DNA of 64,000 bases from Escherichia coli (GTDB lineage Bacteria; Pseudomonadota; Gammaproteobacteria; Enterobacterales; Enterobacteriaceae), in assembly GCF_046105845.1 (NCBI RefSeq), contig NZ_CP151004.1. One strand, written 5' to 3'. The notes under the pieces are model-generated. The model was not told the origin of the DNA and did no database searches. It worked only from the letters and a program-made list of their open reading frames with translations. Below are positions 20,125 to 50,953 of this stretch, piece by piece. The translations under genes and the position numbers were made by a program. Every line of letters begins with the position of its first letter. The stretch's first letter is position 1.

Positions 20125-21084
20125 ATGAAGCCGGAAAACAAATTACCCGTTCTGGACCTTATTTCTGCTGAAATGAAGACCGTTGTGAATACTCTTCAGC
20201 CGGATTTACCGCCCTGGCCCGCAACGGGAACGATTGCTGAGCAACGACAGTATTACACACTTGAGCGCCGATTCTGGAATGCGGGCGCTCCAGAAATGGC
20301 AACCAGAGCTTACATGGTTCCAACAAAATATGGGCAGGTGGAAACACGTCTCTTTTGTCCGCAGCCAGATAGTCCGGCGACGCTATTTTATTTGCATGGC
20401 GGCGGTTTTATTCTCGGCAATCTCGATACCCACGATCGCATCATGCGCCTGCTGGCAAGCTACAGCCAATGTACGGTGATTGGCATTGATTACACCCTTT
20501 CACCTGAAGCGCGTTTTCCGCAAGCAATAGAGGAAATTGTGGCTGCCTGTTGTTATTTCCACCACCAGGCGGAAGATTATCAAATCAATATGTCCCGCAT
20601 TGGCTTTGCCGGTGATTCCGCAGGTGCCATGCTGGCGCTCGCCAGTGCGTTGTGGTTGCGTGATAAACAGATCGATTGCGGTAAAGTTGCGGGCGTTTTG
20701 CTGTGGTATGGGCTTTACGGATTACGGGATTCCGTGACTCGTCGTCTGTTGGGCGGTGTCTGGGATGGCTTAACGCAACAGGATTTACAGATGTATGAAG
20801 AGGCGTATTTAAGCAACGACGCGGACCGCGAGTCGCCGTATTACTGCCTGTTTAATAATGATCTCACTCGCGAAGTTCCGCCCTGTTTTATTGCCGGGGC
20901 GGAGTTCGATCCGCTGCTGGATGACAGCCGTCTGCTTTACCAGACGTTAGCGGCGCATCAGCAGCCCTGTGAGTTCAAACTCTACCCAGGCACGCTGCAC
21001 GCCTTTTTGCATTATTCACGGATGATGAAAACCGCCGACGAGGCTCTTCGCGACGGCGCTCAGTTCTTTACCGCTCAGCTTTAA
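20125..21084 (+). CDS. aes: Acetyl esterase
   Basis: 319-aa ORF with HGGG and GDSAG motifs. Confidence 0.93.
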
Positions 21085-22043
21085 CGATACGCGGCAACAA
21101 GATTAGCCATCATCTCGATATGTTCCGGCATGGCATTAAGCGCCGGAATATATTCATATTTTTTCCCGCCCGCACCGAGGAAGACCTCACGGTTTTGCTC
21201 GGCAATCTCTTCCAGCGTCTCCAGACAATCCGCAGCAAAGCCCGGGCACATCACCTGAATATGACCTACGCCTTTTTCTCCGAGCATTTTCAGCGTTTCG
21301 TCGGTATAAGGCATCAGCCAGGGTTCCCGACCAAAGCGCGACTGAAAGGTCATCATCACTTTTTCCGGTGCCATCCCCAGTGCGGAAGCCAGTTCACGAG
21401 TCGTTGTGCGGCAACGTTGCGGATAATCATCGCCTTCATCTGCATAACGCTGGGGAATGCCATGATAAGAGAGCAGCAGCAGATCCGGCTCGCCATGTTT
21501 AGCGAAAGAAGCACGTACGCTGTTCGCCAGTGCATTAATGTAATCGTGGTTATCGGCGTAATCACGAATAAACGATATCCCCGGAATGCTACGTTTGCGC
21601 GCCAGAATGCGTGCCAGTTCATCCCATACCGCACCGACCGTTGAACAGGAGTATTGCGGATAAAGCGGCAGCACCACAATATGATCTACATGCTCTGCCA
21701 GGAGTTCATCTACGGCGCTTTCCAGTGATGGCGAGCCGTAGCTCATTCCCAGCGCTACGGGCGTCTCCGGTAAACGTTGTGCCAGCGCCTGCTGTTGCTG
21801 GCGGCTGTAAACCATCAGCGGCGAGCCACCTTCCATCCAGACAGAAGCATACAGCTTCGCCACACGCGGCGAGCGCAGTGGCAAAATCACGCCGCGCAGC
21901 AACGGCCACCATAACAACCGTGAGGTATCAACCACGCGTCTGTCGCTTAAAAATTGTTTCAGATAGCGTTTTACCGCTTCAGGTGTGGGGGCATCGGGCG
22001 TACCCAGGTTTGCCAGCAGGATACCGGTTTTAGTCTGACGCAT
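21081..22043 (-). CDS. hemH: Ferrochelatase
   Basis: 320-aa ORF matching recalled HemH. Confidence 0.95.
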
Positions 22044-24874: not shown

Positions 24875-24925
24875 GTAGGTCTACCTCAATAATGCCATTT
24901 TAAGGTTAAAAACAGGATGTGGGAG

Positions 24926-24954
24926 AGATGGGGACAAGGGAGAATAATTTCAAG
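24926..24954 (-). promoter_or_regulatory. sigma32 heat-shock promoter of htpG
   Basis: Minus strand reads CTTGAAA (-35) ... CCCCATCT (-10), matching the sigma32 consensus. Confidence 0.7.
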
Positions 24955-24983
24955 CGAGAGCAGGTGATCCTGCTCTCGTTTGC

Positions 24984-25588
24984 TTAAAAACGAATCTTAT
25001 GACGCCCGGCAAGGGAGTGTGACAGCGTGGTGCCATCGACCATTTCCAGCTCGCCGCCAACCGGTACGCCATGAGCGATTCGGCTGGCTTCCACGTCATA
25101 TTGCGCGCAAAGCTCGGCAATGTAGTTAGCGGTAGCTTCACCTTCAACCGTGGGGTTGGTGGCGAGGATCACTTCAGTGATTTTTTCCTCTGCCAGACGC
25201 TGTTCCAGACGATCAAGCCCGATATCATCCGGACCGATGCCGTCCAGCGGTGACAGGTGTCCCATCAACACAAAATAACGGCCTGAAAACTGCCCCGTCT
25301 GCTCAATGGCGTAGATGTCCGCCGGACTCTCCACCACGCAGATTTGACCGTTTTCCTGACGACGCGGATTCGAACAGATGTTACAGACTTCCTGTTCGGT
25401 GAAGGTGCGGCAATCGGCGCAGTGGCCGATTTCCGACATCGCCCGGGTGAGCGCCTGCGCCAGACGCATCCCGCCGCTACGATCGCGCTGAAGCAGCGTG
25501 AACGCCATACGCTGCGCCGACTTCGGGCCAACGCCCGGCAGACAGCGCAGTGCTTCCATAAGCTGTGTTAACAGCGGGCTGGTTTGCA

Positions 25589-25589
<1 letters not shown>
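24984..25589 (-). CDS. recR: Recombination protein RecR
   Basis: 201-aa ORF with C4 zinc finger and Toprim region; start overlaps the ybaB stop (TGATG). Confidence 0.95.
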
Positions 25590-25933
<344 letters not shown>

Positions 25934-25970
25934 TCACGTTAAGGATGACGAACGTAAGCTGTGCTTACGA

Positions 25971-27902
25971 TCAAATGGGGCGGATACTTTCTTCATCCAG
26001 CTCCGCATCGAAGAACCGACGCAGGGTCTGAATATTATTATCCGCAATAATGGACTCGCGCGCCTGCGCAAGTTTTTCTTCGTATATCGCCTGACGCCAT
26101 TCCAGCGGCGTACGCACCGCGGGATTATCATCTTCAACGATAGTCAGTTCAACCGTTGAACCTTTTAACGTGCTCAACGCTTCAGCCAGTTTTTGCTGTG
26201 CACCGCGGTTGTTCAAATGCCGCTGAGAGGAGCGCAAATGCAGACATACTGCGTTGTCGCTCTCCTCTTTCCAGGCATTTAGCGCCACCTGTTCGACCAG
26301 TTTTGGTAGCGAAAGTTGGCTCACCTGTGCCGCCCACGGGTCGCGCTCAATGGCTTCTGCCGCCAGCTTCGCCGCCAGTTCCGGCGTTTTTTCATGTTCC
26401 AGCGCTTTTTTTAGCGCCTTCGGCGTGGCGACCACTTCTTTTTGCTGCATCACTGGAGTGGTGGCCTTCCAGCGATACGCTTCTTTTTTGGCTGGCGCTT
26501 TTTCCAGCGCCGATGGCACCGGGCGCGCCTGAACGCGATCGGTGACCGAAGCCAGTCTTTCCAGCGCAGCGTTATTCACCGGCCGCGCGCGGGTAGCGGC
26601 TGCCGGTTCACTCTTTTTTGCTTTGGTTGCTCCCTGCACGCGCTGCAACTGCTGGCGCGCCGCCAGCACCTGGCTGGTGGTTTCCGGGAGCGGTACAGTC
26701 GGTGCCTGCTGCGGCGCTGATTGCGGTTGCGGCGGCACCTGTGTTGGCGTCATTACTGCCGTTGGCGCGACGGGCGCAAAGGACTGGCGTGGCACTTCTG
26801 GCTCAGGCAGCGGCATACGCGGATGGAACGCCAGCGCGCGAAGCAGCGTCATCTCAACGCCCATACGGCGGTCTGGCGCATACGGTAATTCTTTGCGACC
26901 AATCAACAGCGTCTGATAGTAAAGCTGAATATCCGTCGGCGGTATGGTGCGCGCCAGTTCACGCATCCGCAGCTCGATGGCAGCCATGTCGTTGCCAAGT
27001 GCAGCAGGCGAAAGTTGTACCATCGCAATACGATGCAACAGACCGAGCATTTCCACCAGCAACGCTTCCCACTCGATACCACGGGCAGCGGCTTCATTAA
27101 TCAGCGCCATTACGCGCTCGCCGTTGGCCTCGACCATCGCTTCAACCAGCGACAGCGCCTGATCGTCGTCAAGCGTACCCAGCATCGCACTGACCGCCTG
27201 AGTTGAAACCTGGCCGTCACCGCTGGCAATCGCCTGGTCGGTCAGACTTAAGGCATCTCGCAGGCTGCCTTCAGCGGCGCGTGCCAGCAATTGCAGCGCC
27301 CGCGGCTCGTGAGCGATATGTTCTTCGTTGAGGATGTGCTCAAGCTGATGGCGAATTTGCTCGACATCCAGCGCCTTGAGATGAAATTGCAGACAACGTG
27401 ACAAAATCGTCACCGGCAATTTCTGCGGATCGGTCGTCGCCAGCAGAAACTTAACGTGCTCCGGCGGCTCTTCAAGGGTTTTTAACAGTGCGTTAAAGCT
27501 GTGGCGCGACAGCATATGCACTTCGTCGATCAAATAAACTTTGAAACGACCACGCGCCGGAGCGTACTGGACGTTATCCAGCAGGTCGCGGGTATCTTCA
27601 ACTTTGGTGCGCGAGGCGGCGTCGATTTCAATCAGATCGACAAAGCGCCCCTGCTCGATTTCACGACAGTTATCGCACACGCCGCACGGCGTCGCGGTAA
27701 TGCCGGTTTCGCAGTTTAGCCCCTTCGCCAGCAGTCGGGCGATAGAGGTTTTTCCGACGCCACGGGTACCGGAAAAAAGATAAGCATGATGAATACGCCC
27801 TAACGACAAGCCGTTCGCCAGTGCGGTCAGCACATGTTCCTGGCCGACGACGTCAGCAAAGGTTTGTGGGCGCCATTTTCGGGCTAAGACCTGATAACTC
27901 AT
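25971..27902 (-). CDS. dnaX: DNA polymerase III subunits tau and gamma
   Basis: 643-aa ORF with AAA+ motifs (GTRGVGKT) and internal frameshift site. Confidence 0.97.
   Translation of the reverse strand: MSYQVLARKWRPQTFADVVGQEHVLTALANGLSLGRIHHAYLFSGTRGVGKTSIARLLAKGLNCETGITATPCGVCDNCREIEQGRFVDLIEIDAASRTKVEDTRDLLDNVQYAPARGRFKVYLIDEVHMLSRHSFNALLKTLEEPPEHVKFLLATTDPQKLPVTILSRCLQFHLKALDVEQIRHQLEHILNEEHIAHEPRALQLLARAAEGSLRDALSLTDQAIASGDGQVSTQAVSAMLGTLDDDQALSLVEAMVEANGERVMALINEAAARGIEWEALLVEMLGLLHRIAMVQLSPAALGNDMAAIELRMRELARTIPPTDIQLYYQTLLIGRKELPYAPDRRMGVEMTLLRALAFHPRMPLPEPEVPRQSFAPVAPTAVMTPTQVPPQPQSAPQQAPTVPLPETTSQVLAARQQLQRVQGATKAKKSEPAAATRARPVNNAALERLASVTDRVQARPVPSALEKAPAKKEAYRWKATTPVMQQKEVVATPKALKKALEHEKTPELAAKLAAEAIERDPWAAQVSQLSLPKLVEQVALNAWKEESDNAVCLHLRSSQRHLNNRGAQQKLAEALSTLKGSTVELTIVEDDNPAVRTPLEWRQAIYEEKLAQARESIIADNNIQTLRRFFDAELDEESIRPI
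26613..26619 (-). other. dnaX: dnaX programmed -1 frameshift site (A AAA AAG) producing gamma
   Basis: Minus strand reads GCAGGGAGCAACCAAAGCAAAAAAGAGTGAACCGGCAGCC...: SD-like AGGGAG upstream, heptamer, then a stem-loop; the -1 frame stops at GAG TGA. Confidence 0.85.

Positions 27903-47406: not shown

Positions 47407-50953
<3,547 letters not shown>

Follow-up and report, generated by a model that had tools for sequence, protein, structure and literature searches.

Stop/start overlap of ybaB and recR in Escherichia coli and the probable coupling of their translation

In E. coli the last nucleotide of the ybaB stop codon is at the same time the first of the recR start codon, and we infer, at a probability of roughly 0.7, that recR is translated by termination–reinitiation coupled to the translation of ybaB. 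The junction was examined in the window, i.e. the whole 64,000-nt stretch of DNA analyzed here (contig NZ_CP151004.1), and the overlap found there is a real, conserved, textbook-type and ordinary arrangement. Both the overlap and its interpretation as coupling are already known, from work of 1989–1990 and from recent genome-wide surveys. As represented in the review PMC9610160, the overlap, the missing ribosome-binding site of recR and the coupling interpretation go back to Mahdi & Lloyd (1989) and Yeung et al. (1990). The published K-12 locus has the same genes (ybaB, also orf12, b0471, and recR, b0472), the same TGATG overlap, no recR ribosome-binding site and the same dnaX–ybaB–recR–htpG order, so that nothing of substance differs except that the strain is another one; the K-12 pair is catalogued as '>NGHB#452 -1 ... 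b0471 ybaB / b0472 recR' in the supplement of PMC10666635. What our survey across species adds is that the tight overlap is limited to one order of bacteria and that short spacing is the general rule.

The features of the locus are collected in Table 1. Base 25589 is common to the ybaB stop codon TGA (25591..25589) and the recR start codon ATG (25589..25587), and the RefSeq annotation has the two genes share the same coordinate. The preliminary description of this DNA had placed a TGATG pentamer with one shared nucleotide at these positions, and sequence and RefSeq coordinates agree with it; its coordinates and its description of the feature were correct, but it omitted that the feature lies on the minus strand. 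The gene names that it used, ybaB, recR and dnaX, are borne out by family profile matches and by RefSeq, as is the gene order that it gave, dnaX–ybaB–recR, on which the open reading frames agree too. In the NCBIfam profiles, YbaB matches TIGR00103 (YbaB/EbfC) over positions 2–104 of 104 with 142.3 bits (cutoff 49.45), and residues 2–197 of RecR match positions 2–196 of 196 in TIGR00615 at 282.4 bits against a cutoff of 162.55, both being full-length matches above the curated cutoff. In the window dnaX, ybaB and recR follow each other on one strand with no gene between them, and RefSeq places apt–dnaX upstream and htpG–adk–hemH downstream of the pair. A 1151-nt stretch across the junction has at least 95% identity in 5424 of 5426 complete E. 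coli genomes, 5010 of the 5424 have 99% identity or more over the 71-nt junction itself, and the overlap is retained in the most divergent E. coli copy of the junction examined.

Table 1. Positions of the junction, the flanking genes and other features in the window
Feature	Position	Strand	Length or product	Basis or remark
TGATG stop/start overlap, ybaB/recR	25587..25591	−		+ strand reads CATCA
ybaB CDS	25589..25918	−	109 aa, YbaB/EbfC nucleoid-associated protein	ORF and TIGR00103
recR CDS	24984..25589	−	201 aa, recombination mediator RecR	ORF and TIGR00615
dnaX CDS	25971..27902	−	643 aa, DNA polymerase III tau/gamma	Upstream gene of the cluster; NF005942, 982 bits
dnaX–ybaB spacer	25919..25970	−	52 nt
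recR–htpG spacer	24875..24983	−	109 nt	109 also in the published catalogue
TAA in recR frame	25602..25604	−		Five codons 5′ of the recR ATG
Sigma-70-like promoter match, 3′ end of dnaX	26124..26152	−		TTGAAC-17-GATAAT
DnaX programmed −1 ribosomal frameshifting element	26574..26638	−		Inside dnaX; Rfam RF00382, 96.8 bits, full length
aes	20125..21084	+
hemH	21081..22043	−
aes/hemH 3′ overlap	21081..21084		4 nt	Same in RefSeq
mdlA	50953..49181	−
mdlA/mdlB overlap	49181..49188	−	8 nt	mdlB start (~49188) derived from RefSeq gene length

The TGATG pentamer occurs 261 times in the window, versus about 151 copies expected from shuffles; by itself it is meaningless, and what counts is that this copy lies where two verified genes meet. 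With exactly one base shared, ybaB–recR belongs to the −1 nt class of stop/start overlapping unidirectional pairs (TGATG/TAATG), and both reading frames are coding up to the junction, as seen from the profile matches and the periodicity of substitutions. Such close spacing is common in E. coli, where 707 of 2,987 unidirectional pairs (24%) are spaced by −8 to +6 nt (PMC10666635) and −1 is the second commonest overlap, behind −4 (PMC10666635, PMC12548453). In the reference segment matching the window, 3 of the 34 same-strand CDS pairs have a spacing of +6 or less, namely mdlA–mdlB (−8), ybaB–recR (−1) and glsA–ybaT (+2). The mdlA–mdlB pair, of the −8 class, encodes two ABC-transporter halves and is likely to be another coupled pair in the window.

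The annotated start of recR is correct and is well supported by comparison with other RecR sequences. Since no ATG, GTG or TTG occurs between the in-frame TAA and the ATG at 25589, no canonical start further upstream than this ATG is possible. The closest solved RecR structure (PDB 5z2v) aligns N-terminus to N-terminus, residues 1–199 to 1–197, with E = 7e-81, and the RecR family profile does likewise. In E. coli RecR, 16 residues precede the LPG motif; at 43 unrelated recR loci that offer a single possible start, the number preceding LPG[IV]GPK is 14–21, and it is 14–18 in 42 of the 43. When E. coli, Klebsiella, Yersinia, Proteus, Morganella and Edwardsiella are compared, 12 of the 17 variable sites 5′ of the junction fall at third positions of ybaB codons and 17 of the 26 variable sites 3′ of it at third positions of recR codons, and the peptide MQTSPLL is invariant across these six Enterobacterales genera. 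This switch in third positions at the junction, together with the invariant peptide, argues that translation in the recR frame starts at or just after this ATG. It could also be that the recR start is mis-assigned and that the real start is the in-frame ATG of Met11 (25559..25557), 10 codons downstream, in which case the overlap would be non-functional. This is hardly credible, as codons 2–10 show recR-frame third-position substitutions, alignment to both the family profile and the solved homolog starts at RecR residue 1–2, and the 16 residues before the LPG motif fit the single-start loci; the pattern of third-position substitutions and the invariance of MQTSPLL lead us to reject it.

recR has no recognizable ribosome-binding signal. 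In the 20 nt upstream that were searched, the best pairing with the anti-Shine-Dalgarno (anti-SD) sequence amounts to −1.5 kcal/mol at a spacing of 16 nt, which is non-functional; ybaB has an SD-like site (UGAGAGAGA) 5 nt 5′ of its ATG with a pairing of −5.3 kcal/mol, and the values for the neighboring htpG, adk and hemH are −6.9, −8.3 and −8.5 kcal/mol, respectively. No SD sequence was found for recR in E. coli or in any of five Enterobacterales relatives (Klebsiella, Yersinia, Proteus, Morganella and Edwardsiella). The 20 nt that precede the recR start code for the conserved C-terminus of YbaB, GFKMPF, and since this C-terminus is conserved up to the stop, the region in which an SD for recR would lie is under coding constraint, presumably leaving little room for one. 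Among the 66 ybaB–recR loci of the survey described below, the YbaB C-terminus reads K-[ML]-P-F followed by the stop in Proteobacteria and P-G-[ML]-F followed by the stop in many other phyla. Nor is the mRNA unusually folded at the junction: over 121 nt the z-score is −0.88, with 31 of 200 shuffles folding equally well or better. Opening the recR start from −18 to +12 costs 11.1 kcal/mol, within the 7–14 kcal/mol range of six neighboring genes, and the mean probability of being unpaired in the start region, 0.53, is among the highest of the seven genes tested. In the minimum-free-energy fold, a weak 3-bp stem pairs U73–C75, i.e. the last two bases of the AUG and the one that follows.

The combination of a missing SD and an overlapping upstream stop is the classic signature of reinitiation. 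A ribosome ending YbaB synthesis at the UGA would already sit on the AUG, which has its A in common with that stop, and some of the ribosomes terminating at ybaB may then restart on recR. RecR would most likely be made mainly by such reinitiation, as recR presumably cannot recruit ribosomes efficiently on its own, and its synthesis would thereby be tied to the translation of ybaB. Termination–reinitiation is favored because recR has neither an SD nor unusual mRNA structure. The spacing of −1 lies inside the range of efficient reinitiation (about −8 to +10 nt), the distance dependence being taken from PMC10666635; experiments in E. coli have demonstrated coupling for −1 and −4 overlaps in general, and reinitiation falls steeply with distance (PMC6728339, PMC10666635, PMC12548453). 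For the ybaB–recR pair itself, no experiment on coupling was found in the literature searched, to which the 1989 and 1990 primary papers were external, and the literature search likewise brought up no pertinent ribosome-profiling data for these two genes. Neither gene is named in the supplements of Mori et al. (2021), which were searched for abundances and synthesis rates, and the pair is not mentioned in the supplements of Huber (2019).

Coupling might instead come about through mRNA unfolding, if ribosomes translating ybaB melted a structure masking the recR start, at which new 30S subunits would then initiate. Unfolding is a recognized general model of coupling (PMC12548453), and the weak stem over the AUG would be in keeping with it, but the structure at the junction is not significant when compared with shuffles, the cost of opening the recR start is ordinary among neighboring genes, and recR has no SD with which to capture a free 30S subunit. 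Because the start region is of ordinary structure the unfolding model is not favored, and as the main mechanism it is rejected on the grounds of the ordinary fold and opening cost; we regard it as very improbable. With unfolding unsupported, what remains is termination–reinitiation or, less likely, SD-less de novo initiation. In the latter case recR would initiate independently of ybaB, with the 30S subunit binding an accessible AUG, and the overlap would be neutral or a by-product of genome compaction that adds little to expression. Consistent with this, the recR start is relatively unpaired, the one-base overlap is lineage-specific, and recR lacks an SD elsewhere despite lying 14–62 nt from ybaB (loci L097, L071 and L103); moreover, bioF, an overlapping E. 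coli gene with a very weak SD, is translated independently of its upstream gene (PMC6728339). On the other hand, of the native −1 and −4 pairs tested in E. coli the majority show coupling, the recR start bears the features expected of reinitiation, and the published reading of exactly this pair is also one of coupling (PMC9610160), so that independent initiation seems to us unlikely, though distinctly less so than unfolding.

A programmed −1 frameshift producing a YbaB–RecR fusion was also considered and rejected. The last ybaB codons (...CCG CCT GGC TTT AAG ATG CCG TTC TGA) contain no X XXY YYZ heptamer, the recR frame is interrupted by the TAA five codons 5′ of the ATG, and Rfam finds a frameshift element in dnaX only. 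That element is the known site yielding the gamma subunit, and RefSeq annotates it too. Rare YbaB–RecR fusions of 311–312 aa are nevertheless present in E. coli and Klebsiella assemblies (P0001–P0003, P0007, P0010 and others). In the E. coli examples (L130–L132, positions ~1820–1840), a single T insertion, ccgTTTctgatg versus ccgTTctgatg, turns the ybaB TGA into a CTG leucine codon in frame with recR. Since dnaX or htpG is also fragmented in the fusion-bearing contigs, the fusions are probably assembly indels rather than genuine fusions or frameshift products, although three samples, including GCA_900449805.1, carry the identical insertion. A one-base insertion at the junction fuses both open reading frames and accounts for the occasional 311-aa 'RecR' entries in databases.

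There is a phage coupling system with direct experimental proof in which the downstream start, like that of recR, has no ribosome-binding signals of its own and adjoins the upstream stop. In E. coli, a parallel in spacing is trpE–trpD of the trp operon, the first demonstrated case of translational coupling, which also has a −1 nt overlap and in which the downstream gene is expected to depend on upstream translation, as for ybaB–recR (PMC12548453). The two cases differ in that coupling of trpE–trpD was shown genetically and its products form a complex, whereas coupling of ybaB–recR has been deduced and a complex of its products is not known. The pair is flagged 'CMPLX not' in the catalogue (supplement of PMC10666635), and with no YbaB–RecR complex known, the usual stoichiometry rationale for coupling does not apply. 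The ybaB/ebfC–recR pairs of other bacteria have the same order and usually a short spacing; most of them have a short spacer rather than an overlap, and −1 is rare (3 of 66), being confined, among the relatives named below, to most Enterobacterales.

These figures come from a scan for the RecR helix-hairpin-helix motif pattern, which returned 120 loci from many phyla, 101 of them encoding RecR; start codons were chosen by a rule calibrated on loci with a single candidate. ybaB lies immediately upstream on the same strand in 66 of the 101 RecR loci, and 24 others, whose upstream flank covers 700 nt or more, lack ybaB there. The spacing of the 66 pairs is −2 or less in 3, −1 in 3, 0 to +3 in 7, +4 to +20 in 25, +21 to +50 in 12, +51 to +200 in 12 and more than +200 in 4. 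The median is 13–14 nt with quartiles of about 7 and 50, and 42 of the 66 pairs are spaced by +30 nt or less, in agreement with the published figures for COG0718–COG0353 pairs (n = 997, median +13, quartiles +3.5 and +46.9; Table S4 of PMC10666635). Closer to E. coli, the dnaX–ybaB–recR order recurs in Klebsiella, Yersinia, Proteus, Morganella, Edwardsiella, Plesiomonas and Photobacterium. The junction is TGATG, at a spacing of −1, in Klebsiella, Yersinia, Morganella and Edwardsiella, and in Proteus (L125, ~1496–1503) the ybaB stop has changed from TGA to TAA with the one-base overlap retained as TAATG. In Plesiomonas (L126, 1363–1501), counted among the Enterobacterales, the overlap is lost and the spacing is +137. 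Photobacterium (L127, 1495–1503) has a spacing of +3 (TGATAAATG), with two stops followed by the start and no SD; the spacing is +14 in Vibrio, and +60 and +62 in two Pasteurellaceae. Tight linkage of ybaB and recR is thus general, and the exact one-base overlap typical of most Enterobacterales. Since the overlap is absent outside the Enterobacterales and in Plesiomonas, recR can evidently be expressed without it, and often without a clear SD. In two Pasteurellaceae loci, from Rodentibacter (L071) and Haemophilus haemolyticus (L103), the 60–62-nt spacers contain a perfect-looking inverted repeat just 3′ of the ybaB stop (e.g. GCGTGAAGCGGGTTTCACGC), recR there being without an SD; the repeat could be a terminator, an attenuator or another regulatory hairpin.

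The conservation of the pentamer has to be read with care. The stop and the start codon, both essential, together take up all of its bases, so that its conservation is largely forced and constitutes weak evidence of selection on coupling, and it is partly trivial because a change in spacing requires an indel. One might speculate that the one-base overlap is an adaptive innovation of most Enterobacterales, locking RecR to a fixed small fraction of YbaB output. If this were true, RecR output would also be locked, via the shared transcript, to the expression of the clamp loader (dnaX), and RecFOR-mediated gap repair would have an unrecognized connection, functional or by dosage, to the nucleoid protein YbaB. 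The observation that would speak for such an innovation is conservation, itself largely forced by codon constraints, and we consider this reading very improbable.

ybaB and recR are presumably carried on a common transcript. No terminator-like site was found on the minus strand in the dnaX–ybaB spacer, at the ybaB–recR junction or in the recR–htpG spacer, and the dnaX–ybaB–recR operon structure has been reported (PMC9610160, PMC10287930). A functional promoter inside dnaX has been reported as well (PMC9610160), so that ybaB–recR is transcribed without dnaX as well. The sigma-70-like match at the 3′ end of dnaX (Table 1) is a candidate for this published internal promoter; it is the one match found, versus 1.8 expected from shuffles, and so is not significant alone, its −35 hexamer is kept only in Klebsiella, and its −10 hexamer lies within the conserved EDDNP codons. 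Nonsense, frameshift and insertion alleles of ybaB can be expected to exert translational polarity on recR, and repair phenotypes attributed to ybaB therefore need complementation controls, a point made in PMC9610160.

Elsewhere in the window, aes and hemH converge and their 3′ ends overlap. In the reference NZ_CP076709.1, an IS200C transposase gene (606760–607218) separates mscK from rsmS; the window appears to lack it, with downstream coordinates offset by about 700 nt.
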